In this document: positions 9,770 to 55,367 of the stretch, one piece after another
Numbering within the stretch: position 1 is the first letter of the stretch
How the letters are laid out: every line of letters starts with the position of its first letter
Assembly (NCBI GenBank): GCA_002633005.1
Contig: NMRA01000137.1
Span: forward strand, 744,001 to 808,000
Origin: Phoronis australis
Taxonomy: Eukaryota > Animalia > Phoronida
Direction of reading: 5' to 3'
Length of the DNA stretch: 64,000 bases
Made by a program: the position numbers and the translations under genes
Notes under the pieces: model-generated
Seen by the model: the letters and a program-made list of their open reading frames with translations, nothing else
What the model was told of the DNA's origin: nothing
Database searches by the model: none

Positions 9770-12604
9770 TTTAATAGAAAATCAACTACGACGAAATACA
9801 AGACACAAAAGAATTGCACTTAGTGGGAAACTGGAAACGGGACTTGGAATTCCCAACATGTTCTACTGTACTTGCTCAAGTACACAGAAATACAAATGTT
9901 CTACCGTACTTGCTTATGACAAAAATACCAGTTCATGTTGACCGTCTGCAGATCTATACAAATTCATCGGGTACTTGAAGAAGTTACAAACAAAAGGAAA
10001 GAATGGAGATTTCCTATGTTCACACGTAACAAAGAATTGTACATTGGCATATCCTAAAGGAACCTTCCAACACATTTCAAGAAGAACAAGGACATCTGTC
10101 AGATTTCATGACACCAGAGTACTTAAGAGACATTGACCAACCAAAGCAATAATCCAGTAAAGTCTCGCCAATCTGAACAGCAAACTGAATTCTGTTCTTC
10201 AATTCTAGTTTTTCAATAAAGTAACCGGAAAACCAATAGAGAGCTGTTACAGTATTATTTTCAAGGTCTTATTGGATATTTTGAAAACTTGTGAGGATCC
10301 ATAACGTACGAAGTCATTGACCATTCATAAGCAAATTCTTCTGTCCAAAATTGGCGAGATTCTCCTGCATGAAGATTTTTGCATATGTTGCCCAGCAAGA
10401 TATTGCGGTATGGACATGACTGACCAGAACAGTGTTTATCGAAGGCCAAGCGTGCCAAATAGTACACGTTTAGAAGTTTAGGTGGCGCTGCATTTCCATG
10501 AAAGAACATCAACTCATCAGAAATTAGGTTCTCTTTGCTTCGACAGTCTCTTGGCATCTGGATAAACAATACTGTTTCAGAAAGTTGACAGCATATCCTC
10601 ATGTTGAAAACTGCCAAAAATTCTTAACAAAAATTTCCAACTAACTTTCAAATTATTCAGTGTTAGCTTTTGTCGCAGCCCCTTCTGGACTTTCAACATA
10701 GCTTTCATGAAACCAAATAATTTTTGACAAAAATTGTCAACATTTATGAAAACTACCGTATCATTTTCTTAGACCTGAAATACTTTTGAGTGTCACTGTC
10801 ATTGCTGACCAACAGTGGTGCTATCTATGCAACTTCATCAATTCGTAGCAACACAAGACGTGTTGGGTTTTTTGGAAATAACAGAAAAAAAGCACACGGC
10901 AACAACTTCAACTGGTTCGAACAACTTATTGTAGCTGTCTGTCGCTATAAATCACCAGAGAAAAGCAACACCAAGCTTTAGCACAAGGAGACATTTTGCA
11001 ACTTCAGAGTTACAAAATTCGTTGAATGTAAAATCGAGACTGAAAAGGTTTCACAAAGAAACAAAATGGCTAATGGGCTAATTTGGCAGAGGCGGGAGCA
11101 TTCTGTTTTTTGCAATTAATAAAATGATGCAATAAATATATACATATACATATGTTGAAAATGGGTTCAAGCTATTTTGGCAATAATACAATTAGAATAA
11201 CAAGCTCCGCCTTCGAACACTGATTGGTCAAATGACTAGTCAATGACAAGGCAAAATTTCTAGAAAAATAAATATCTCTGCAAGTGTGGCGACTAAAATA
11301 TACAATGTTAATTCCTAATTTAAACACTAATAATATTAATAATTATCATTATAACAACAACTATGTGCTCCTTGCATCTATATAAATACAAAGAAACAAT
11401 TCTAACAACTAACGAGCAAATATACAATGGAACAGACGAACAAAGCAAGAATCAAAATAGAAACATCACAAGGGAGCTTTTGCAAATTACAAGATTGAAG
11501 TTCATTTGAAGAATGCATGAGAAAACAATGGACAAATTTCCATCACTTCCAACTTAATGACCCTAGACACGTTGGACCTGATGCCACAAACAACAATAGG
11601 AAAGAGATTCAAACAGTGAATCTAGACATTGAATTTCACACAATCAACAATGAAATCGTGTAAAATTAGAAACCCTAACAAAAAGTAATACAAAATTACA
11701 TCCATATGGGTTTGCATGCCGATTCCGTCGAGTTTAAATACAGTAATGAAAGTGGCACCAAGGAAGAGAAAGATAACCTTTGAGTGTGTACATTTTTGTG
11801 GGTTGACTGAATTAAGGAATGAAACATAGCCTTCAAAATTCAATACAGAAGTCAAAGTAATTTTTTTGCGGACAGCGAACACGGTATTAGTTAGTGATGG
11901 TTTTCAAATGTCTCATTCAAAAATGGCTACAGTACTAGAGGCACACATGTACAAATACAATAACAATTTTTTAAGTCATTCAGAGTTCATTTCATGGATG
12001 GAAGAACAATGAACATTAATATCATTTACGATCAATAATCAACTATAAGGATGAGCAATACTTACTAAACGATACAGTCTGTATTTTCTCAGTCCAAGAA
12101 AGAATATTAGTCTCTATTTTGACAAAAATTACATGATGTTACGTTACAGACAAAACAGTATAAAATAACAACTATCCATTTCCACGGATTTACGATTCAT
12201 TTCAACTTAAAATAAATTATGTTCAAGAAAATTTATACCAGTAACTTCATTAGCTAACCACTACTACATAACACAACACTCAAAACCTAATGAAGCAGAC
12301 GTGATTTTACAGCACATAAACATGTGGAGACAACTACTGATGATTCATTGGTATTTATGATGAAATGATTCATGACGACGTAATGAAAAATAATTTGACT
12401 TGCTTTGATCACAAAAATAGTTAATCATTTCCATGAAGGCTGCGCAGTTAATAAACCAGTACGCATCGCCCAAAGAGTTCGCATGTCTCGAGGATCCCGG
12501 AGCATCAGCAGGCACACGTACCACTCCAATGACAACTACTTTGTCGTGGGAATAATCTCCTTGGGGTCACCGTAGCTTTACAACACCGAGAGTCTGCAGC
12601 CATA
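9770..12604 (-). other. Probable ~2.8-kb FoxP 3' UTR with candidate ATTAAA at 9770-9775
   Basis: Strongly U-rich on the - strand from the stop codon down to about 9750; no evident transposon insertion. Confidence 0.45.
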
Positions 12605-12797
12605 CTAATTGCACTCTGCTGAAGTGACAACTGTTGGCATTGGGTGCACGACCTCCCTGTAAGCCGATTTGATATCATAGCGACCGTCTCCGTATGCTGA
12701 AGGACTACGTCGAGGGGATCTACTGGGTTCCCCCTGTTGGCCGTCAACATTACTGTTCTCATTGCAGTCATCCATCTCTTCATCCTGAGGCTCATCC
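12605..12797 (-). CDS. FoxP: FoxP last coding exon ([13 protein letters not shown]...TSAECN*)
   Basis: tgtttcag|G acceptor, phase 2; open acidic frame to TAG at 12605-12607. Confidence 0.75.
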
Positions 12798-15700
12798 CTG
12801 AAACATCAACAGAACTTTTAGATGGCAATTCACAGTAAATACATTCCTAGAAACAAGATGATCACTATCAACAAGAACAATGTAAAAATTGATGAATCGA
12901 AGTTTTAAGTTGACAATTTTTGGTCCAGCGAAAGAGTATGTGATGAGCCATTAAAGCAAGATCGAGTGCACATCCCAGGCTCACGACTAGTTTGAAGATT
13001 GTGTTGAGACAAGTGTGTATTTCAATGCCGAGTCTTGCTATGACTTCACTTTTTGTCAGAAGAAGCAACTGAACTCTATTATAAGGCATGTTAATAGCCT
13101 TGCACAACTGTATTATGTCCCTGGTAGAGCTCACAGACAACATTTACGACATGCTTATCAGTCTCAGCCTTTTCATTATCAAAAGTAAAATGACATTACC
13201 TGACAAAGACTTCGGAAGATTCCCTTCTGGACATAGACAAGTCTTGAGCGCCCTCTACGTCACCATGACTGTCTGCATTGTTGAGAAATGGGAGATTGCT
13301 CTCGGCTAGCGCTGCCTGCGAAGAGCAGTCAACATATACGATAGGTCAACAAAAACAGCATAATTTGTTCAGGGGGTCCATTTCATGAAGAAAACTCAAG
13401 ACTTCAGTCAGAAATTTTGCTTTTCCCTCAACACAACTATTTCTAAAAAACAAAAAAAATTTATTTTTTCTCACCTCAGCAAAACAACATCAAGATCTTT
13501 GAAAATACACTTGCCATTTTTAGCTGCTCAGATTATTTTCGTAAGCTATTTCCAAACTGTGAGATGCTAACAATCACAAAAACTTTGCTAAGTAGTAATT
13601 AAGAGGGAGGATAAGTCAAAATTTCTGACTTAAGCCTAAAGACACTTTTTCTGAAACAGACCCCTGGTCTGTGTTTTCTAGAAGTTGCTGCAGTGATTCA
13701 GCGTGCTTTCCTGTCCCTATTTCCAAAACAAAAATCACACGATAACAGCTGGAATGGGCCAGCCACCTTTTTTCTTTAACAAAGAGTCACAGGTTTCAAA
13801 ACGTTTCGAGCATAGACCAGAACAAATAATGCTTTTTTCTGGCCTAATAGCAATGATGAAGGATTAAAACATAACTTTTTACTATACAGTGATAAGTCAA
13901 CATGGTCACAGAGTTTGGCATGCATGTAAGTTTCATAATCCATAAAGCTCTTTTCAGAGGTTAAAATGTTCACCATTTATCGCTGTACACTGAGAATGAA
14001 AACTGTTTCGTTCGAAAATGTTTGATAAGCATTTTGTGCCGTTGTGCAACCCAGAGGTGTGTTTTGTATCCAAGAAACTAGCCAAAAGCAGGATCAGACC
14101 CAACTATGCAAAATCACCCTAGTGAAAGGTGAACATTACATAACTGTGATCAGGAGCTTACGTACTAGCCACAGCTTGGAATGACCCACAACAAAAAAGA
14201 GGAAAAATTTCCAGGTGATGTATAGTTCTACTTGGCCCTGTCCACTGTCTTACTTGTGCACAACCTACCCCAGCTCTTGCCTTTATGTATAAGTAAGCAA
14301 CCAGGACGTAATATCCACTGAACGCCAACACTTACCCTAAGACTAGCATTAAGCCTCTCACCAAACAAAGAGGTGGGACTAGGCTGTAGTGATGGACTCT
14401 TGATCTGCAAACTCCTGTAGACAGATTCAGTGGGACTTTCCTCACTGTAACAAAGATACGAAACAGGGAACATCAACGGATGTTTGTAAACAAAATAATT
14501 GTGTTTACAGTTCTGTCACATCAAAGTGATTACCAAAGCATTCGGACAAGTACTAAAATCTCCATGAAACCGGATGCCACAATGGAAAACTACAGACAAA
14601 AATATGAATTGAATGCAACACCATCTACGGGGGTTTCATGCTGTAACACGTTTCGACAATGTTTATTCGGTTGCTGTTTCACTTTAATCCCTTGTATCAA
14701 AATTCTCGAAAACGTAGTAAGGGATGTCTTGGTGTAACAAGGCTCTTGGACTAGGTCCCATGCTGAGAACGACCAACATGGCTCCCTTCTGACGTGTCGT
14801 ATCAATGTTCTAACATTACTTAGAAAGGAAGGTTGGCTGTACTATCAAGAACAGAATGAGGTCAACTCAGTGACCTTAACAGAATACCGCTTGGACTCTG
14901 CTCGGACACAGCTAGATATCTATAAGGTCACACCTCACGTACGGTACATCAACAGCGTGGACACCAAACATATTTGTCTTTGTAATACGCTGCTCATGGG
15001 ACAAGAAGTTGTTATTCTCACATCATAAGCCAAGCGTGTTGTCAATCCTTCACATGACGGCGGCCCAATTTTCGAAAACTGGATCGGTGATACGATGCGT
15101 TTTTCTACCTCCGAATGAGGAGATAAATCTGGGATTTAATAATTTGCCAGGCCTAGTTGATTCACTCACCCGCTCATCTTTTGAGGTCTTCTCTTGTAGA
15201 ACTCCACCTCATCCACCGTCCACACCGCCCCCTTCACATTCTCAACCCTCATGAAACACTTGTGTAAGCTTAGGTTATGTCGCACAGCGTTCTGAAACGG
15301 GAAAATTTAACGCAAAGAGATTAATCTTTAAGTATCATAGTTTTCAAAGAGACAGCTGGATTTTTCGAGAAGGAAATCACAATTTTTTTAGACAATACCA
15401 TGCTTTCAGCATTTTAGTTTTGACTTAGACAATGAACAAACGATTTTTCAAAGATGCAGAATTACTACTTCATTATTGACTCTATAACAATTAATCTCTT
15501 ATTTTGCAATTTTTATTGTGAAAATTGTAATTTTTCTATTTTTCAAAGCCTGATTACCACCTTCCTCCAAATAATGGAAGCTTTACCAAAGCTTTATGAC
15601 ATAGATTATTCAATCCTAGCTAATAGACGATTTGGGTTTTGTCGAAAATTTGAAAAAATAAACTTTCACTTTCCGGTCATAATGTGTGCTAATGGGTGAA

Positions 15701-18700
15701 GAATTACTGAATGTTTTAGCATTGCCTGACAATTGCTCAGTAGACTAAACCCAGGTCACAAGATTTTATTCCATCAGCTGAAGCGCAATTAACTGGAGAT
15801 TGACCTCAATACATCTGGGCCCAGGGTCTAACCTTTTAAACAAAACCAAACTTGAAAATAAAGTTGGCATTTATCATTCTCTTTTCATACAAACTTAAGA
15901 TAATTATCTATTATGATATGGCATGAATTTTGCAAACCATCATGTAGTCCAAATCTGTAATCAGGATTTCGAGTAAAAACTCGATATTCCGCATCCAGAC
16001 TCGACCTCATGGCTTTAAAGGCGAAGGCAATCTTTTTTTCTTATCATTCTCAATAAAAATTACGTTTGTTGATTATCACAGACACATTTTTCAGCTAATT
16101 ACAGCTTCTCGTTAAGTAATTAATTACTTGTGTCATACTCCGGAAGTGACGTTTTGGGAGTCAAGAATTACGCTCTTTTTCTTTTAATATAGTCTGACTG
16201 TGTGAGTTGTCGAAACAGTCATTGTTCTACCTCGGTTGTGATAAGTTCGGACGTTGTTTGCTTTAAATTTGTTTATGAGTCAGTCAACATGTCGCACAGT
16301 TGCTACGTACCGGGATGTACTCATTATTGTCTCACACGCACTAAGGGTGTACCATTACATCGCCTTCCAAAAGAAGACACACTTTGCCGCACTTGGCTAG
16401 TTCGTGTGAAGAACATAGCGTCCACGCACTGTACAAAGCAGTGGAAAATTACCAAGTGTGTGGCAAGCATTTTCTGCCATCGGATTACGAAAGAGATGTG
16501 TACGCTTAATCGATGAAGGTCCCTGCAAAACAATGCCTGAAGAAGGGGGCCATACTGTCGCTACTGATTCCCGGCAGTGACCCGTCGCCATCCCCAAGAT
16601 GTGTATTTTTGAAGCGAGAAGCCTCGCGAGCTGTAGCCACTAAAGTGACTGGAAGCACTTCATCTACTGTCACCCGTGCCTCTGAACGTACCCCAGAGTG
16701 TGCAATGCCGGAAACTAGCAGTAATTCGCCGAGTGCTGCTGTCTCCAGCCCAGAGCCTGTAAGCAGCCCTGCAGTGATGTTGAGTAGTGGGAGTGAATGC
16801 AGGCCCAGTTTGACACCCACTGAGCAGCCTAAAAGATGGGGAGCTCGAACTCTTGAGAATGTGAACATCTTACTAAAAAGGGTACATTCAATGTATTGTG
16901 CATTTGCCGAATGTTGGTAGTTCTTGCCTTTTTAGTGGACCTCTGTTTTCCATTTTTTCAGACTAATTGTTTCTCTGAGGCGGACCTTTTGCCCACTTCG
17001 CCAAATGGGGGGGCTGTGATATAGGGTCGCCGACTCCAGCCATTTTCAAGTTACTACAAACTAAACAATCCCCAAATCCAGACAAATTGAGTTCTCTAAC
17101 AACCTGGCTTGTCGCAGAATACTCGTCGATGGAAAGTGGTGACAATTTTAGAAAAACAACACGAAAACAACAGTAGTATAGATCCTCACAGTAATCTCGA
17201 ACACAGAACCAAATTTCGCATAATTCTTGACTTCCAAAACGTCACTTCCGGAGTAAAAAGACGAGTAATTAATAAAATTACGAGAAGCTGTAATTAACTG
17301 AAAAATATGTCTGGGATAATGAAGGAATCTCACTTTTACTGAACATGACATGAAAAAAGGTTTCCTTCGCTTTTAATGCTAGAGTCAGCAAGTGCAAAAT
17401 AGGATCATGCAAGCCTCAAAGGAAACGATGATATTCTTAAACACAGTTCATACACAAGTAGAACATATGTTAACGTAATTTTGAGTCCGATTTCAAGTTA
17501 AAAGGTTATATCCTCAGCCATGATCAGACTTTCAACAAAACACATTAAGAAATATGATAGTGTTGAAGATCTACAATCGTGTCAATGTTTTCACTACAGT
17601 AACTGGTCTAGTAACAACGCCATCACCAAGGCACATTCTCACCTCGAATATTTTATTTAATCAATAGGAAATGTATATCAAAATATGAAAAAATTACATT
17701 CACACTTTCGAATTAGCATAATTGAAGAGGAGATTGATGCTGCTTTTGCTTCCGCAGTTTTCAGCAAAAGGGAATCGATGCTAAATCTGTATGAACAATA
17801 AGACGAAAATAGCCACCCAGGAAGCAATCACAATAAATAAATCTCCCAATACAAGCATTACAGCTGTTCAACTGTACAGTATCCTTCATATAAAACACTC
17901 TTCATTCGTAAATCATCCCTTTCCACAATACCTTCCACGTAGCCTCGTTGCGACGGAAGTACATGAATGTGCTTTGAAACCATTGGTAGATCTCATTTAG
18001 AGTCAATTGGTGATTGGGCGATTCCACTATAGCCTGGTAAACAGAAACGACTCATCACGAAGCTGACCACTAATACAAGGGGAGCTAACTCCCACATCAG
18101 ACAGTCTTTCCTCTTTCACGGCAAATGAATTTCACTGAAGAATTTTTTTTCTGGACGTAAAGAGTTTGAAATTCCCGAACATTTCATAAAACAATATTTA
18201 GTTGCTTGAAACTTCCAGAGAATTCAGTGCCAATCATTTTCTTTTTTAATTGTTTGATGAAAAGAAAACACTGAACGCCATTCTCCCACTGTGAAACCAC
18301 TTCAAGAATGTCGCAGATTATGCTGTTTGGACAAAGACTGTCATGGAGGAATTAGCTCAGTGTTTTATAGAAAACACTGCTCGTACCTTCCAAGTAGCTG
18401 CGTTTTTCCTGAAGAAGGCAAAAGTGTTTTGAAACCAGAGGTATATTTCATTGAGTGTAAGCTGCCGCTCTGGCGATTCAAGAATTGCCTGCAAACAGAA
18501 CACATGCTGGGTGTCACAACGCACTCTCAAAGTTAGAAAAAATATCTGATTCAAAGAATGATATTTCACATTAGTAAACTTTTTCTAATATCAAAAACAG
18601 TGTTTATTAAAAACCTACTTGAACAGAAAATGATGGAGTCCCATAATTTCTAACTTTCAAGAAAGGATAATTTCTGCCATTTACTTTAATACACAACAAA

Positions 18701-21700
18701 TGCTCAACACCGGAACATATTGTGCAAAACGGATAATACTGTAATTTCTTGATGCCTTTGAGAAATGTTCAGCACTTCTGTTGATCATGTGTCTTAGAAT
18801 TTTATTGACACAACAAAACACCTTTGATAATGTTTGGCACGTTTGCTCATAATGGGACTTAGTCAAACATAATGATTCCAAATTTATTGACATAAAACGC
18901 CTGTGATAAGGTTCAGCACACCTAACAATAAACATGCTGGTCAACGTCATGCCAACGGTGTATGGTATAGGTGCGAGGACAGTGTGTGTGACACCAAACA
19001 TGCGGTCTCAAAACTCCGACCAGTCTCAACAATGTTAGAACAACACAGAAAGTTAAGAAGTTTACTGGCTGTAGGAAGCAAGCATTTTTTAGGAACAGTA
19101 CATGGTTTCCTGGTTGAGAAGTATCAACACTTAACACAAGAGTAGATTAAAACCACTGAAAATACTATGACATGAGAGGAACGAATTGATGCATCGAAAC
19201 CAAACAACGCAACATAAGTGTTGGAAAACACAAGTTGAAGTGCAGCTATGCTACATAAAAACATTCATCTCTAACTATTTGACAGGCCAATAAAAACAAT
19301 GACTATCACCAAAACGAGCTACGCTGGCAAGACTTTACCATTCATGTTAGTGTACAATATCATTAAATGAGAGAGAGCAAAGTGTGTTCAAATAATTGCT
19401 AGGTACCAACTTAAGCCATGATGACTAAAACATAAACGTGGAAAAGTCCCGATACATCGGCCTGAGCCAATAAGCATTTGTATGTAAGTCACGTGACACT
19501 CCATGCAAGCTAATAAGCAACTCACCTGACGAATCAGTGAGGCGTACGTGAATGGCGGCCTCACATCCGTGGTTTTATAGAAATCTCTGTTCCTTTGGAT
19601 TTCTGCAAACAGAGGGCAGTAAGGTTACTAGCCAAGTTCATGACCAACTGTCAAACGTCCTCAGAACAATCAAACAATTGACAGTGAGACACCACGGAAA
19701 CCTAAGTGATGTCAACAATGACAAGCAATAATAAAAAGCGTGGAAGAGTTGGACAAGCAGAGAATATATCAAGATTTCATAAGGAATCCGCAGTAGAGCA
19801 CCAAAGATGGAGTAAACATAACTATGAAAGGACTACAGTTGCAGTGCTCGATGCTTAGGTTGACGGCAACTCACATTTGGTGACTTGGCGAAAATCCCAG
19901 GCTGCCAAACGAAATCTGAGGTTGCCGTGACCTATGCTCAAATCGTTGACTCAAAAAAGGTTGCACTGTACCCTGTTCTCAGGAACTTATGTATACCTCT
20001 TCAATTTTTTTTCTGGGAAAGGATATGCGCCATTCAATCTTAAACTCAATTGCTCCTGCCAACAAAGATGGAATGCAGATGATTGAATACAGTGCAGACA
20101 CCTTTTTCAACAGATTTTTGCTGAACAATCCCGACTTCCACGTTTACTTCCTGTTGTAATTTAAGCATGTGTTTGATGTGTGCCGACTGATGAGGGTGCC
20201 AAAGGCATCGATTTCACAAAATAAACAGAACAACTATGAAACAAAGGTATTAAATCTATGAAAAGTGTTTGCAAGTCACTACAAACTTTGAAATGAATTT
20301 CGGGAGAATTATTGTCTGACTTTGATACTCGCTGTGGTGACAGCGGCAACTTGGGTTTTTCCCAGGTCAAAACAGACTGAGATCGCATTGGCAACCTGTT
20401 GGATGCCAAATTGAGCATTGACTTGTCAGAGGTATTTGGTATTCAACAATTTGAAATGTTATCACAAACAAATCGGAACTCACCAGCTGATATTGGAAGA
20501 TTGCACTTGTCGGACACACGCCGTCTGATTGGTCCACTTGCTCCGCTACTGCTGTCAGAGTCCTGACGATGACGGGACATAGGCGACTTTGGAGTGGACG
20601 TAGGCGTGGCTGGGGTCGACGCCATGGTGACGGCCAATAGGTTGGTCAGAGACTGGGGAGGGGCGGTGGGAGTGGAAATGACTGGCACCTGGGGTACACG
20701 GCTGGTTGCCGGGGGCGACTGGAAAATTTTGAATAATGGGATTTAAAAAATATTGATGAAAGTTCATGCTATTGGGAAATGCTCATTTTAAGGCATCATA
20801 GCACTAAAAAAATCAGGGAATAAACGTAAAAGAATTGCGAACAGATTCATACACACAAAATTCCCAATACATTGATTCTCAGGAGATGGAGGGAAAGAAT
20901 GATTAACAATGAATTCAAACCCACGACAAAAAAAAATCTTGCACGCACCAAGCCCACTCAAAGTGTGACGACGATGCATTTCAGGCCAACACAACTTTAA
21001 GGGAATTATTCCCCAGTACACCATAGAATAATAAATTGAAGGTAAATATTTCTCAACCACTGAGACAAGGCTTATACTCAATACACAGTGAGAGCGCCCC
21101 TTAACTACTGGCACCAGAGCAATCTCACCTGGGGTTCACGCTTAGGCTCGGCCTGAGGTTTCATATGAAGATGGTGCATCATAGCTTGCAGTCTATCACG
21201 TTCTTTGGTCAACTAGAAATATACAAGGGCAGCTTGATAAACTTTCGTTTCAGACTATGCTATGTTTCATCTGTTTGCAAACTATAACATTTTTATGTGA
21301 TCCACGAAATAGACTTCTGATGACATGTCTCAAAACACTGTTGGTTTTAGTCATCACTTTCTTTACAAACGAAAGCTATCACCAGCGATCTGTTTCATCA
21401 AAATGACATAAGATTTAAGACAGAATTTTGGTTTTACATTCACATGTCACAATTGGTGAATACAAGTTTAGTCAAGTATTCATTAATGAATCACAGCCTA
21501 GTTATAACCTATAGGAAAATCTTAGTAACAAGCAATCACGCGTATATTCACAGTCTTTGCACTTTTGCTCAAGTGAGATTTAATTATTTTTCACAAATAG
21601 CTGGGTGGAGCATAAGACCATTCTCAAGTCTATAGAATTAACTAAAGGTAAATCAGTCAATATGGCACACGAGTGGAATTTTCATCATAAAAATTAATCA

Positions 21701-24700
21701 CAAAGGTAAAGAATTCAACTTAGTTTTTACCATTTACAGCCATCAGCAGGCAGTGTTTGATACAAATTTGAGCGCTTGCAGCTATGGAGTTAAGCTTCAA
21801 AAACTGAGAAATAGCCGTTGTAGCAATTCAGTTCACAAGTCCCAAATTGAGCAGAGGTACATAGAAAGTGAGCGATGTGTTTCGTTAAGATTATCAACAT
21901 CTCCTACAACTAACCGGGCAGACCGCCTTTCACTCTATCCGTAGAAAGACACGACAGCTATCACAAGGGTTCGAGCTGGCTACTAATACTAACACACCAT
22001 TATCCTTTCACAGCCAAATGTGCAAAATACAGCAACCACGGAATGACCAAAAGTCCTCAACTAATCTATGGGTGACCAGTAGAGTCAGCGGTTAAAAGTT
22101 CACAGGGATCTCGCGGGAGTTCACAACAATTAGGGGGAAAATTGATCGACGTTGCACCAATTAAACACAAACCACTGCCATATGTATCAGCTCCCAAAAC
22201 ATTGATCCGCGGTATGTACACTGACAAGCAGAACTAACAAGTTGTTCTCACTATGAGGCATGCAACAAATAGGTGGCGCTAGTGTACCCAACAGAAATAT
22301 CAACAATCAGGTATTGCGTGGACCGTTGTCACACCAAGATCCTTAAGCTGATAATCTACTTTGTGCTCTCAATCTAGAAAAAGGGTCCTTTCTTCGTCAG
22401 CGCCACCTACTAAATACCAAATCTCCCACTGGTCAAGTCAATTTCGTAGCACCAGACCAGGGTTGCAACAGCAATCCAACAGGAACTACCACATTGATGC
22501 TTCCATATCTAAACTGTGGAAGGCTTGAATTTAAGCCAAGAAGTGCACAACAGCTGATAGAATTAGTGACAAACATCAAGAAACATCCTCAGGGGCTAAT
22601 TGTCACGAGTTCGAACTTGTTCCACTGTTTTACATCGCATACAGAAGTCAAATTCATCACCACGAGTCAAAGCACTCCTCAGAGAACGGTGTTTGTTTGA
22701 TGTAAATCGATCACAGGTCATGGAGATGATATAATATATCCTTAATACACTACCAGTAATGCTAGGACCTACGCTAGGACCTCACTAAAATTTGGCGTGT
22801 TCTTATTTAAAATATCTGGCAATATCTCCCGTCATCTCACGAAGTCTAGCTATTGAGTGAGGTCCAAGTGCTACTGAACTCTACCCAATAAACAAGTATT
22901 GCATAAGGGCCACAGGAGGTCAACATAACACTATAACAACAGGCAAGAAATCCGGAGATTTGGAGAAAAATCAACTACAGCACAGGATATGAATACCAGG
23001 GAAACCCAGCGCTACTGTTTCAAAGAGTAACTTTTCAGATGTAATACCCGACCATGAATTCCATGCCACACACTACAGCATACTTGACCGTTTTTTAACA
23101 CACCACATGAGACAACTCCAACACAAACATTTGGGGTCTTGTTATCCCAACGCCTAATCGAGCCTAAACCAGACTGACTAACCCAGCCTCATCGATTCAC
23201 AGAAATGCTCCTGGCTTACCCCGATGCTGAAGAAAACCTATTCGCTAATTTCTTTCATAATGCATTGATTTTAAAAATTCAAAGACAGCTATTTTTTACT
23301 TATCAATTTTAAAAACAGTCATGTTGGTTGTTTGCCTTATTTATTATTTGTTTTTTGATTTTGAAACTCGCTCACTAAACAGGCGTGTTGGTTTACAACC
23401 TCAATTATCTCACCCAACACATTCAGACAAGCCCATGAATAGTGACTAGACTACTTCAATCCGTGACGGTACCATCAAGCCTTTGATTTGCCGAGAAATT
23501 TGCTGGATACTCTAGGGGTAAACAGTGCATGCTTTCTCCTCCACTTGTGTGCATATCTTGTTGGCGTAAGATTTGCCTAACGTATGCCTTTAAGAAATTG
23601 AAAGCAAAATTCCCAAAGTAACATGCACATTCGCGACATTCATCGATTTTAAATACAAATTTTGAGTCTGTCTTGGGTAAGGTTACCTGGCTGCAAATCC
23701 ACACATCTTACTGTTACCATCTTATATCACACCTGTAATCGTCAACCTACCTGTACCTCCAACTGGGTGACTACTTGCATCTGTACGCGTGCCTGCGCCG
23801 TGCTGCGATCGTCCAGCACATGTTCAGTATTCAGGTGCCTGGAAAAGCACGATTTTCAAGTTAGTACTTACATATATCCTTCAATATTCAAAAGGCTTTC
23901 CCTTAAACGTATCAATTTTATATTGTTTCTTCCATTCTCACGAACATGGTAATATGATATAAATGCAACTTTTCATGTCCATTTTCATTTTGTCCATAAC
24001 TTTTGTATCATTTTTCCTTTTCATTTGAGGTAAGGGCTTTCGATAAGCTGTATTTCCGTTGTCCACACAAATATAAAGAAAACAGCTTTACGAAATTGTT
24101 ACACTCAAGAGATCATTTTGAAAAGGCAGATGATATGTGTAGACATAAAGAAGAGCTAATGATAAGAAAATGCTGTTCTTTCAAATAAAAATACAATCAC
24201 ATAATTGGGCCTGAGTCCAGAAAAGTTGTTACTTTTTAACTGTACTTGAAAATGTGCACGTACTTAAGAAAACTTGCGTAGTCTTCTGTGGCCGTGTCAC
24301 ATCCTGGCCATTTGCACAATCCATGCCCATAGAGAGGGTTGGACGGTTCCTCTGCTTTCATAGCTAGGCCCGCAATCAACGGATTCATGAGACCTCCCAG
24401 GGGACCTAGAGAGCCTGTGGTAAATGGGTAAAGAAAACAGAAAGAATTACAAACTATGGAAAACTCTTTAAATGTTACCAAATCCTTGTTTAGTCAAACT
24501 ATTACCATACATTAGCTCCATATACATCACCTTAATCGTTGAAACAAACTGATATATAAATATGGACCAATGCCGCAGGGGATATCTTGTCATATGGACC
24601 CAGGGAGTGCAACACTGTTCTCCTGAGGTCCATATGAGCTGGTATGCCGGAGGAATTGGTCAAAATTTGTTTTATTGTATAACCACCGACATTTTGCTTC

Positions 24701-36700: not shown

Positions 36701-39700
36701 GTGCAAATTTCTTTAGACACAATGCACATCTAGCTCGTTAGATTGCGTGGCTCTGGCCAAAAGACAGTCTCTGCTTTGGCAAATGAACTCTGGTTACACG
36801 CACGCGCTCGCTTACTCGCAGACGAACTTCAAAACAAACGTCACGTGACAACAACATGTGTGTTCGTCCAGACATTTTTCTCGCCGTGTTGCCGATCATA
36901 CATGTAGATGGCACGATGTTGCGCAGATTTGTACTTAAAACTGCCGTAAATCCAGACTCCACGGGAACTTAAAAAAGTCATAGGGACGCTACTTAGAAAA
37001 CTTAATAAGGATTTCAGGTAATTTGCTTGAGTCGAAACTATTTTTATTCAAGCATTGAAGTCGCCATATCGAAGACGGCGATTTTGAGGCAGTCAGTCGG
37101 CGAGTTTTCACCCTGGGATTTCAGCACGATTTGCTGTAAAATGATCGTAATTTAGCAGTAAAGTTTGATAGCAATGCACAACAGTTTTGTTGGAAGTCTT
37201 TCATAGATTACAGATACGTCAGAGAACGTCAATTTGATGAATCTTAGCTTCCGATTTCACCCGTTTCGGAGACCGGGTTTCAACCACCTTGGGTTATAAT
37301 AAGCGCCCCCCTTGAACCGAACTTTTCTAAGCGCCCTGGGCGAATACGGTAGCTTAAATACGCGAACAAAATGAATACGACCAAAGGTTCAAATTATCAA
37401 TGTTATTCCAAAATCATGAAAGCTGTCAAAAGAAATTGTGCGATGCATCGACGGCATTGACAAAAGCGACAACAGGAAATGAAAAGTTGAAGGTCAAATA
37501 CTGCAGTTCTGTGATCATCACAGCTAAGCAAATATGGGCAACCATGATGACTGGCATATCATTAGTTTTTTGACACTGCATGGATTGTTTAGAGCTTCCA
37601 CACATGGTGTCTTGAAAATTCACTGCTGGTCCATTTAAGACTTCTGATAAAAACATCAGAGTCTATTGTAACTGACAAGTAAAGATTTCTTCTTAATGCA
37701 GTTAAAACTGATAATCCTGTTTTGGAAACCAGCATACAAATGAGCAAGCCTCAACTGTTGAGAAATTTATTTAAAATACTTTTTGCAGTAGTTCGACCGA
37801 GGCCCACTGAAAGACAATGAGAAACTACAACCAAATATCAAGACAACAGAACTAGTGGTAATTGGTCACATTGCAAAAAGGTCACAGACCCCATGAATGC
37901 CTTGTAAAACTCAAACCTCACAAAATCTAACTAAATCTACTAAAATCTCATGAAACTCCCTGCATTTTCACAAAATCTACCTAAGTTTTACTAATTCTCT
38001 TGCAGAAAACCCAGCACAATTGTTGTTAGTATTCTGTACCTACATAAATACGCTAATACAACGGTTCCCTAAAGTTCAATTCACCATCCTCAAGCAGTAT
38101 ATCCATCCACAACAGACATGATCACAAGTAACACAAGAGCAACGCAGAGCGTTGAAATGCGCCCACAATTGCACCGCATACGGTATCCTTCTAGGGTTGA
38201 TTATTGGTACCACAAAGTGGCCAGTAGAGAGCATATATGTAGTATGTTGTACTTAGCAAAATGGAAAGGCATGGTCATTGTCTCCTCAATAGGCTAGGGG
38301 CAAAATGTGAGTAATCTTCATAATACAAGCACATCCTATACACCAGTTGCTTAAAGCACCACAGAAAAATAGAATAAAAACAAATTTACCAACATACGAG
38401 ATTAGCATAGCATTAGAATGCCAGAAACAAATTTCTACTTGGAACTTTTCCTTCATAGTCACGAAGTAACACAAAGTATACACCTGAAGACCTATGAAAA
38501 TACAGAGGTCAATGTAAAATACTATAAATTGCCACTAGAGGCAAATACTAAAATTGCCACTAGAGGCATACCGGTAGTCAGAATCATCCTAAAGTCGTCA
38601 TCGTCCGTTGTCAACATCNAAAATCTAACTAAATCTACTTAAATCTCATGAAACTCCCTGCATTTTCACAAAATCTCCCTAAGTTTTACTAATTCTCTTG
38701 CAGAAAACCCAGCACAGTTGTTGTTAGTATTCTGTACCTACATAAATACGCTAATACAACGGTTCCCTAAAGTTCAATTCACCATCCTCAAGCAGTATAT
38801 CCATCCACAACAGACATGATCACAAGCAACAAAATCAACAGAACCAAAACTCACTTGGAAAGTGCGTACCTGAACTGGAATAGCTTCACACCTATTATGT
38901 ATAAAATGTCTCTGGTTTGTGGTCTATATTGGTAGAGCTAAACGGATTTGCTTAAACACTAGAAAGAATACAAGATAATGAAATTTCCTTTATTAAGTCT
39001 ACTCTCGTAGATAATGGTTATCCAGTGAATTTGATACAGTCGTGTATTAACAAAGTCATTCCTATTTCGGGTGACCTGGAATATGGTCCTGAGAGTCACA
39101 AGTGTTACTTCGTTCTTCCTTATAGTCGCCACAACAGTGTCTTGCTTAAACAGGGCTTGGAATGACCCATGACAAAAAGAGGAACATTTATACTGCCCCA
39201 AAAACACATTGCAATCTAAACAACCATACCTCAACATATCGAAAGTAAGCATTATTATCACAAGATGCCCTGTAACTGTGTCGTGTTGGCAAAACGGAGT
39301 CATTTTAAGCAGTACCTGACATCTATTTCAGCAACAACAATGAAGGAAATTAGATGCAACAAAAGATTTTTTTTTAATTAAAATTTTAAAAATAACTATG
39401 CAAAATTTGCAGTGTGACTGAAAGAAAGTTATTCTCAGGGCTTGGAATGACCAATGACAAGAAACGCGGAAACTTTTATGGCCTAAAACATGGGCGCTAC
39501 CCAGCCTTGAAACAGTCGACGTGAACCTTTCGCCGACAAAAAATCGGGACTAAAAAAAACGTTACCACCATCAGTAGCATGCGTCTGTGTGTTTTTAGCT
39601 CGTCCGTCCACTCCCACCCCCACACATTTTTGGCTGCACAGCCGCAGTATTTGTCACCGCGGTTTACAATCACACGAGACGCCATTGAAAATCCCATCAC

Positions 39701-42700
39701 GCTATCCCAGATGCCCCGGCAATGTTGACAATTTACGTTCCTCCGAAACATAAGGAGCAATTTCTGCTTTTCGAGGTGAACGTCGTCGGCAACACCGCGG
39801 TAAGAAAGGAATTTGCCGCGGAAATTTTATATCAAATCCGATTTTTTTTACGCGGAAATATAATAAAATGCGCGGACACAACATTTGAAAAAAGCGGAAA
39901 TCCGTGTTTCCGCGGAAAATTCCAAGACTTGATTCTAGATTTGCTGCAGGGGGACCTATAAAATTATTTTCATTATTTTAAGTTCTTATAATTACGATAC
40001 AAAATTATAAAAATTTTTGAAAATTGGCCCAGATTATCTAGAAAGCCTGAAATACATACACATTTACGGTAATTCAACAAAAATTTAATTCCAACGCAAT
40101 GGAAAAAAGTCAACACGACAACCTGTGGATCATACCCCAACTGTTAGCATGGAAAAAATGAAAGTCAAAAACAACATACTTTAAACTATAGAACACATCA
40201 ATCACAATCGTAAGTTGGCCAAACTTTTCAGATTAAAACAATACTTACAGGAGATAATTGCTCATAAGCCATGCCGGTGTAAAACAAACTATGTGACATA
40301 AGAAATAACTACAAGAACACTCAAAATAGGCTAGCAGAATTTGTAAACAATGGCTTGGACCAATCAGATCATTCAGAACCTGCCACGTGACCACTTCTCT
40401 CTTGAACTGCATAACTCGAGTCGGTCAAAATAGGACTTTTTAACAAAAATAAAACATGAAAAATGTCAAAATAAATTGAAATACATCAACGGCAACTTAA
40501 AACACATTTGCAGTAACAAAAATAGCACTTTGTATCCTGTTTCGGCAGCATGTGGAAAATCGGCAGACTCTGGCCTAGCAGCGAACTTGGCAACTGCCAG
40601 CACGGGCTTGCACATGAGATCAAACAAAAGAATTTCATACATCACTCACATCCCATGATTCCAATCCAACATATTACCGGTTACGGTTGAATTTCCCTTC
40701 AGAAAGCGTTTTTCTTTCTTGTGTTTCATTGTTTTCAGGTGGTTCTCCGCGATTTGGCCACACACACCGTAATTGTCCCTCTATCAAAGTTTACAGAGCA
40801 CAAACCCAGACCTTTGTTGTATGCGAACACATTGACCGTTTCTTTTATCCACTTTTTCCACGAAATATTCTGTCTACTCCAAGCTCCAGGCATTTTTGGC
40901 CGCAGAATCGCACTATTTGTCACCGCGATTAATACCATATGCAGACGCCATTGATGAACCACGCAATCCCAGGTGCCCCGGCAATTACGACTTTCGTTCC
41001 TCCAAAACATAAAGAGCTGTATCCGCTTTTCGAGTGGTCGGCAACGCCGCGGTTAGAAACCAATTTACAGCGGAAATTTAATGGCAAATCCGATTTTTTC
41101 GGTGGAAATATAACAAAAATGTGCAGAGGGAATAAGAGAAAAAAGTGGAAATCCGCATTTCCGCGGAAAATTCCAAGCCNATTATCTAGAAAGCCTGAAA
41201 TACATACACATTTAATTCAACAAAAATTTAATTCCAACGCAATGGAAAAAAGTCAATACGACAACCTGTGGATCATACCCCAACTGTTAGCATGGAAAAA
41301 TGAAAGTCAAAAACAACATACTTTAAACTATAGAACACATCAATCACAATCATAAGTTGGCCAAACTTTTCAGATTAAAACAATACTTACAGGAGATAAT
41401 TGCTCATAAGCCATGCCGGTGTAGAACAAACTATGTGACATAAGAAATAACTACAAGAACACTCAAAATAGGCTAGCAGAATTTGTAAACAATGGCTTAG
41501 ACTAATCAGATCATTCAGAACCAGCCACGTGACCACTTCTCTTGAACTGCAAAACTCGAGTAGGTCAAAATAGGACTTTTTAACAAAAAGTAAAACATGA
41601 AAAATGTCAAAATGAATTGAAATACATCAACGGCAACTTAAAACACATTTGCAGTAACGAAAATAACACTTTGTATCCTGTTTCGGCGGCATGTGGAAAA
41701 TCGGCAGACTCTGGTCTAGCAGCGAACTTGGCAACTGCCGGCACGGGCTTGCACATGAGATCAAACAAAAGAATTTCATACATCACTCACATCCCATGAT
41801 TCCAATCCAACATATTACCGGTTACGGTTGAATTTCCCTTCAGAAAGCGTTTTTCTTTCTTGTGTTTCATTGTTTTCAGGTGGTTCTCCGCGATTCGGCC
41901 AAACACACCGTAATTGTCCCTCTATCAAAGTTTACAGAGCACAAACCCAGACCTTTGTTATATGCGAACACATTGACCGTTTCTTTTATCCACTTTTTCC
42001 ACGAAATATTCTGTCTACTCCAAGCTCCAGGCATTTTTGGCCGCAGAATCGCACTATTTGTCACCGCGATTAATACCATATGCAGACGCCATTGATGAAC
42101 CACGCAATCCCAGGTGCCCCGGCAATTACGACTTTCGTTCCTCCAAAACATAAAGAGCTGTATCCGCTTTTCGAGTGGTCGGCAACGCCGCGGTTAGAAA
42201 CCAATTTACAGCGGAAATTTAATGGCAAATCCGATTTTTTCGGTGGAAATATAACAAAAATGTGCAGAGGGAATAAGAGAAAAAAGTGGAAATCCGCATT
42301 TCCGCGGAAAATTCCAAGCCTAGCTACAAGACAGTTAACCAGATTAGTGCATCAGTTTATGCTCAATATTTAATTCATTGCACTAAAAACATCTTGCAGG
42401 TTATGCTCTCAAAACTTAAGCATCCTTTGTCAGTACTGCAGAGATCTAATGTTGTATACAAGTTTGACTGACAGTGTGATGAGCTTTATGTTGGCATGAC
42501 AACTTGGAGATTAAGTCAAAAAGCAAAAGAACATTCTAATAGTGACAACAGTGCCATCTGTGTTCATTCTATGGTAACAGGCCATGTAATAGATTATGCC
42601 GATCCTACAATTCTTCACAATCATAGATTCAGATTGGTTATTAAAGAGAGACTTGCCATTGTTGATCTAAATGCAAGGGCTTTCCTGAACGGCAAACCGT

Positions 42701-54867: not shown

Positions 54868-55367
54868 CAGGGCTTGGAATGACCAATGACAAAAAAAGCG
54901 GAAACTTTTACGGCCCAAATCAGGCCCGCTAACCAGCCTTGAAATGGTCAATGTGAACCTTTCCTCGACAAAAATCGGGACTAAAAAAAAACAAAAAAAC
55001 GTTACCACCATCAGTAGCATGCGTCTGCGTCCTTTTAGCTCGCCCGTCCACTCCCAACCCACACATTTTTGGCTGCAGAGCGGTAGTATTTGTCGCCGCG
55101 CTTAGCAATAACACGGGACGCCATTGAAAATCCCACCACGCTGTCCCAGATGCCCCGGCAATGTTGACAATTTACGTTCCTCCGAAACATAAAGAGCAAC
55201 TTCCGCTTTTCGAGGTGAACGTTGTCTGCAACGCCGCGGTAAGAAAGGAATTTGCCGCCGAAATTTTATATCAAATCCGATTTTTTTACTCGGAAATATT
55301 AAAAAAAGCGGAAAGCACATTTGAAAAAAGCGGAAATCCGCGTTTCCACGGAAAATTCCAAGCCCTG
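54868..55367. mobile_element. ~500-bp MITE (TIR CAGGGCTTGGAAT), apparent 6-bp TSD TTTCTT
   Basis: TTTCTT|CAGGGCTTGGAAT ... ATTCCAAGCCCTG|TTTCTT; same family as 39436. Confidence 0.88.

Follow-up and report, generated by a model that had tools for sequence, protein, structure and literature searches.

A tandemly duplicated forkhead exon in a phoronid FoxP gene and a candidate RNA-structured splice switch

The FoxP locus and its duplicated forkhead exon

The window, by which we mean the whole stretch of 64,000 nucleotides of Phoronis australis DNA analysed here, holds one lophotrochozoan-like FoxP gene on the minus strand. The nearest named FoxP to this gene is that of a chiton (73%). Its exons, in the order of transcription, are as follows.

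12603..24414, minus strand: span of the FoxP coding exons located with single-base precision (tblastn, open frame)
24264-24414, 23751-23838, 21129-21212 and 20484-20718, minus strand: coding exons 5' of the forkhead exons
19526..19602, minus strand: upstream forkhead exon, ending in ...IRQ, constitutive (20484>19602, 29 reads; 19526>18033, 26 reads)
18387..18488, minus strand: exon A, the duplicated exon of the helix 1 end, helix 2 and hinge, with Ala-Phe at FOXP2 positions 539-540, normally skipped
17932..18033, minus strand: exon B, the routinely used copy, with Met-Tyr at FOXP2 positions 539-540, mollusc/nemertean-like (26 reads per junction)
15170..15291, minus strand: recognition-helix exon, beginning NAVRHN, single (tblastn, profile search, RNA junctions)
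14336-14444, 13200-13315 and 12603-12797, minus strand: coding exons after the forkhead exons

More coding exons lie upstream, reaching about 44900 by tblastn. At about 39500-41800 and 54900-55300, within the large 5' introns, translated stretches occur again in nearly identical form, indicating repeated elements.

Exons A and B had been predicted, from the letters of the DNA, to be two 102-nt phase-0 exons lying 353 nt apart, and their coordinates, AG/GT flanks and translations all match that description. Recomputation gave the same figures for their likeness, 25/34 identical amino acids with 13 of the 25 shared residues recoded; at the nucleotide level the copies agree at 69 of 102 positions and differ at 33. 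Each matches Pfam Forkhead positions 14-48, and the window contains no third copy. In fact, the pair has equal length, equal phase, homologous neighbours and intact splice sites, the features by which mutually exclusive tandem-duplicated exons are recognized, and all four splice combinations (A, B, A+B and neither) stay in frame to the same stop. The original prediction also held that the flanking introns do not align. This is so upstream of the exons, where 271 of 1000 shuffles align as well, and not so downstream of the donors, where a 15-nt motif is common to the two regions (11 of 1000 shuffles as good). That the pair reflects an assembly or haplotype artefact is scarcely credible, as had been claimed, because 33/102 nucleotides differ, the upstream flanks do not align, and reads of other individuals, mostly at 99% identity or more, are spliced over the region of A and also lie on the A-B intron.

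Forkhead splice switches are known in this family. According to the accessible text of PMC3002244, the FOXP1 18/18b and Drosophila FoxP-A/B pairs duplicate the next exon, the one that starts at N550, and this isoform A/B pair is Bilateria-wide, with losses in nematodes and in FoxP2-4. The known switch changes base-contact residues and with them the DNA motif (PMC3002244; Gabut 2011 via PMC11701043; both from excerpts). Exons A and B resemble it in being tandem-duplicated alternative exons in the forkhead that keep the frame. In contrast, it is the preceding exon that is duplicated here, the base contacts are untouched and the hinge differs; the placement of the known pair in PMC3002244, as far as that text is available, thus agrees with the earlier claim that a different exon is involved. 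The NAVRHN exon is single, as had also been noted: tblastn with three mollusc/nemertean isoform-B exons matched only 15170-15291, a profile of 10 isoform-B exons run over six frames of the window matched the NAVRHN exon alone, and by neither method did the window yield an isoform-B exon, or a remnant of one, as its partner. Unlike the bilaterian switch, then, this gene has no duplication of the N550 exon, and its partner does not occur in the window. One forkhead switch seems to have been lost from our FoxP, which carries what looks like another. We found no description of a duplicated middle FoxP exon in a literature search that had most subscription papers outside its coverage, and the accessible part of PMC11998571 contains none.

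Exon use in RNA and constraint on both copies

RNA evidence comes from three raw RNA runs (X2-X4) of one study, with 18-19% of each run examined and joints listed from 3 reads per run. The upstream>B junction, 19526>18033, is covered by 26 reads (5, 12 and 9 over the three runs) and the junction from B to the NAVRHN exon by another 26 (5, 7 and 14). Both junctions on which the original prediction would have B checked are therefore seen, and inclusion of B is established. The doubt which that prediction laid on B has to be moved to the other copy: B alone has listed junction reads, which makes it the default exon, and A is now the doubtful one. The reads represent about 20 independent B starts, so in these samples A can be no more than a minor form.

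No upstream>A or A>downstream joint is among the joints listed, which are 15 of 28 in the wide mapping, or among those of the narrow repeat-free mapping. The latter lists upstream>B as its only joint, plus 28 loose read ends that continue from B into the NAVRHN exon, and in its listing for the three runs, at the threshold of 3 reads, there is no A+B joint (18387>18033), no double-skip joint, and no loose read end at A or from a double skip. Depth over 18410-18474, inside A, is 0 in X2, 0 in X3 and 2.25 in X4. In the last run the depth bins of both mappings require at least 4 reads over the A region, minimally an unspliced pair across the A acceptor and two short pieces over the 5' part of A. 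Where the two pieces both run past 18474, the sum of their ends is about twice 18487. Since 18487 is the position at which an upstream>A joint would appear, this depth hints at one upstream>A spliced pair, within an arithmetic that has many other solutions, with piece ends from 18449 to 18500. Unspliced reads over the A acceptor and the A-B intron stand at background depth, and the contig run X1 covers neither A nor B.

Two further observations concern the neighbouring sequence. Allelic changes occur in RNA reads at 19526 and 19538; the first of these is the final position of the upstream exon (donor -1), and splicing to B still occurs despite the change. The intron downstream of B carries, at 16029-17363, an element with inverted termini of about 140 nt, likely a non-autonomous DNA transposon, with a heavy two-strand pile-up of RNA reads from other copies; its two short ORFs have no Pfam match.

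The claim of an old duplication under purifying selection is upheld by the substitutions that separate the copies. Between A and B, pS is 0.85 and pN 0.19; in a codon model dS is saturated and dN 0.18, and an omega of 0.5, the value for one copy being neutral since the duplication, is rejected (LR 32), the pairwise omega being a boundary estimate that is compatible with recent loss. Across 41 other FoxP peptides 15 of the 34 columns are variable, and these columns hold all 9 differences between the copies (p about 1e-4); A and B both retain the 12 columns that are invariant among 101 peptides. Constraint on both copies is established. We also simulated neutral decay (20000 runs), counting an exon as intact when it kept all of 19 invariant residues, its open frame and AG/GT; such exons made up 37%, 8% and 0.7% at 0.02, 0.05 and 0.1 changes per site. 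Together, the constraint tests and the simulation mean that A was held as protein until recently at least.

Could A have served for long as a working alternative exon and been silenced lately, staying intact through the short time elapsed? We regard this as unlikely. The lack of a listed A junction beside 26 B junctions fits such a loss, as does zero depth in mid-A in X2 and X3, and intactness would survive 0.02-0.05 neutral changes per site with a probability of 0.37-0.08. However, with dS saturated, the loss would have to fall in the last few percent of the history of the copy, the RNA represents three samples of one study at 18-19% of reads, and X4 holds a possible spliced A pair. If A is silent, it is a well-preserved exon fossil.

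Predicted stems, the hinge and the proposed switch

Exon A is enclosed by strongly complementary stretches. The stems listed here are predictions, found by looking near the exons.

18987..19008, minus strand: stem I, intronic arm, able to pair with the A acceptor region, the pairing extending to about 18978 (predicted)
18497..18518, minus strand: other arm of stem I, in the A acceptor region, 9-30 nt before exon A (predicted)
18358..18379, minus strand: predicted 9-bp hairpin, beginning 8 nt into the intron past the A donor (MFE and centroid of the A-B intron, self-match)
18333..18358, minus strand: 5' arm of predicted stem II, in the A-B intron (core -33.8 kcal/mol)
18082..18110, minus strand: 3' arm of predicted stem II, with 48 nt between its end and exon B (folding, duplex energy)
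17889..17899, minus strand: weak possible competitor for the 3' arm of the hairpin, downstream of the B donor (11-nt perfect complement, -13.5 kcal/mol)

Stem I is the longest inverted repeat in 17400-19700 and is predicted to cover the polypyrimidine region of A. Between the upstream intron and the 40 nt that precede A, the predicted pairing energy is -39.9 kcal/mol, a strength reached by none of 300 shuffles and none of 367 background AG sites (closest -39.7). The ends of the A-B intron pair at -45.2 kcal/mol, again beyond all of 2000 shuffles and 631 sliding windows (closest -43.4), and the folding of this intron has a z of -3.0 (0 of 100 shuffles). For comparison, ten other acceptors of the gene give -13.6 to -24.6 and nine other introns -12 to -28, some control splice coordinates being off by one base, which does not materially affect the duplex energies. 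Neither stem has arms with a strong copy at another place in the window, and RNA reads do not pile up on the arms as they would on a repeat. Strong complementarity around A is established.

Pairing is not peculiar to A. In the local fold the splice sites of B are largely paired too (mean unpaired 0.22-0.29 versus 0.13-0.24 for A), so that accessibility alone separates the two exons poorly, and a 7-bp pairing of the A donor in the isolated intron is gone in the wider fold. We found no strong competing structure able to turn A on, each strong arm having one clear partner; the complement at 17889-17899, which would be ATE1-like and weak, is at chance level when taken alone and forms part of the motif common to both donors. 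The intron after the NAVRHN exon (14445-15169) has a strong pairing of its own, at -43.4 kcal/mol, starting near 14871.

Several other ways of keeping A and B apart were considered and set aside. A Dscam-like dock shared by the A and B acceptors finds no support in the B pairing, which at -19.5 lies within background. U12 incompatibility fails because all four sites are GT-AG, coupling of frame and nonsense-mediated decay because all four combinations are in frame, and plain steric hindrance on the length of the A-B intron, 353 nt.

To explain these results we propose that A and B arose long ago by tandem duplication, with B as the default and A as a rare, mutually exclusive alternative, held off by RNA structure and shifting the protein toward domain-swapped dimers. 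We consider this reading probable. Stem I would hide the polypyrimidine tract of A and the upstream donor would, we infer, pass on to B. Stem II and the hairpin would fold the 353-nt A-B intron and leave only about 40-55 nt open; the shortened open intron would then bury the A donor, or set it too near the B branch point for an A>B join. The block by stem II would matter because A+B is in frame and could not be removed by nonsense-mediated decay. In some tissue or stage stem I may be opened, and A would be used in place of B.

The same observations can be read in other ways. A might be a cassette co-included with B, yielding a forkhead extended by a second helix-2/hinge segment: A+B is in frame, and the 353-nt intron, with GT-AG at both site pairs, is long enough in plain sequence. 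We find this very improbable, since no 18387>18033 joint is listed, predicted stem II closes the A-B intron, and A has the full domain pattern of a replacement, not of an insertion. Alternatively, A could be kept for a regulatory role, as a splicing decoy, in intron detention or as a structural element, its protein product hardly mattering. Its enclosure by strong predicted stems would suit such a role, as would the unspliced reads at background depth on the A acceptor and the A-B intron. Yet the constraint acts on amino acids and leaves synonymous sites free (13/25 recoded), which is not expected of a purely RNA-level role, and A keeps the frame and so is not a poison exon; we give this reading little credence.

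Under the proposed switch, A and B would work like a structure-gated mutually exclusive pair, and we do not count them as a member of the 18/18b switch. ATE1 exons 7a/7b with their R1-R5 pairings (PMC7797038), the docking-site/selector model (PMC6071210) and Dscam (PMC11802352), each as presented in the portion of the source available, likewise have duplicated exons, and in them intronic pairings conceal a 3' splice site and block double inclusion. In ATE1 and the docking-site systems, however, two elements compete for one dock, as shown by compensatory mutants, whereas the two strong stems here are predicted ones that do not compete, and the only competitor found is weak. The two stems offer a testable model for how a newly duplicated in-frame exon can be kept exclusive without nonsense-mediated decay.

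What would the exchange do to the protein? Aligned to FOXP2, FOXP1 and FOXP3 structures, the A/B exon runs from the last part of helix 1 through helix 2 and the hinge to K549. Excerpts of PMC3002244 give the FOXP2 base contacts as N550, R553, H554, S557 and W573, and name Ala 539 as permitting the swap. The base-contact residues all lie in the NAVRHN exon, which the A and B forms share, so that an A/B exchange would act through the hinge, Ala-Phe against Met-Tyr, adjusting dimerisation and affinity and not the motif. The residues concerned are columns 24-25 of the exon, equivalent to FOXP2 539-540. Column 24 is the Ala/Pro hinge position (2KIU mutant), a role described in the parts seen of PMC6443806 and PMC3002244. 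The Ala-Phe of A matches human FOXP3 3QRF; FOXP3 chain 7TDW has Tyr at column 25. Among 101 other peptides Met at 539 occurs once, and Phe at 540, which is common in invertebrate FoxP, is found in 25 of 101.

According to the accessible text of PMC8508939, changing Tyr to Phe at 540 lowers the dimer Kd of FoxP2 about 10-fold, and the same change affects, reportedly reduces, DNA binding (PMC7935712, in part). The A form is thus predicted to be more dimer-prone with an unchanged DNA motif, by extrapolation from isolated vertebrate domains. FOXP3 differs from FOXP1/2/4 by Phe versus Tyr at this very position, a difference linked to the stability of domain-swapped dimers (PMC8508939, PMC7935712 and PMC4333414, as far as available). 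In vertebrates, however, the Phe/Tyr difference lies between paralogous genes, whereas here it would lie between two exons of one gene, with an additional Ala/Met change at the neighbouring hinge position. The known FoxP switch alters the DNA that is read; the A/B pair would spare the reading helix and alter the hinge that governs the dimer. The cellular role of FoxP domain-swapped dimers is debated, and two natural isoforms differing in one 34-residue exon would be a clean test of the role of the hinge in an animal.

Relatives and the age of the pair

B finds its best matches in mollusc and nemertean FoxP (29-30/34) and nests with them at 99/86 support; its Glu30 is shared by molluscs, the nemertean Tubulanus and Macrostomum. 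Phe25 and Lys28 of A are shared by Capitella teleta FoxP (P0290) and by 14 of 101 peptides, and the nearest rows to A in the larger tree lie outside this Phe25/Lys28 group. Lophotrochozoan FoxP middle exons thus come in two types, Phe25/Lys28 and Glu30. A clade of A plus B is rejected with 43 peptides (p-AU 0.014) and not with 103 (p-AU 0.40), in tests that use 34 columns and no mixture model, the 43-peptide run having been made after seeing the tree.

Clusters with 94 members, chiefly molluscs, supplied 80 isoforms bearing the forkhead; in no cluster did these show a second version of the middle exon, and 6 isoforms use the known isoform-B exon. Each of 16 metagenome FoxP loci, from distant animals and in many cases short or transcripts, has one copy, a count uninformative for close relatives. 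In the FoxP genes L011-L014 the middle exon is interrupted by one more short intron, which follows ...FAYFR. A search for close relatives with the zinc-finger exon gave no match, and the ESM Atlas returned only Forkhead clusters. It is plausible that the A/B splice switch evolved independently.

We can also envision an older origin, in which an ancient lophotrochozoan exon pair was sorted by lineage and both members were kept here, as an RNA-locked monomer/dimer switch replacing the lost Bilateria-wide DNA-specificity switch. In that case annotation of other genomes would have missed A, since A would be just as rare in those animals as in this one. We regard this history as possible, though doubtful.

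Tandem copies of the middle exon were met once more. ENA ORF P0219 (118 aa, on a contig of 1277 nt) holds two of them, separated by a 39-codon intron-like spacer (V...Q); its first copy is the more diverged and the sequence type is different from that of A and B. On its sequence, P0219 is possibly an independent duplication in another animal, which suggests that the FoxP middle exon has been duplicated more than once. A second ENA ORF, P0226 (93 aa), shows a partial tandem repeat of the acceptor region and the first half of the middle exon.
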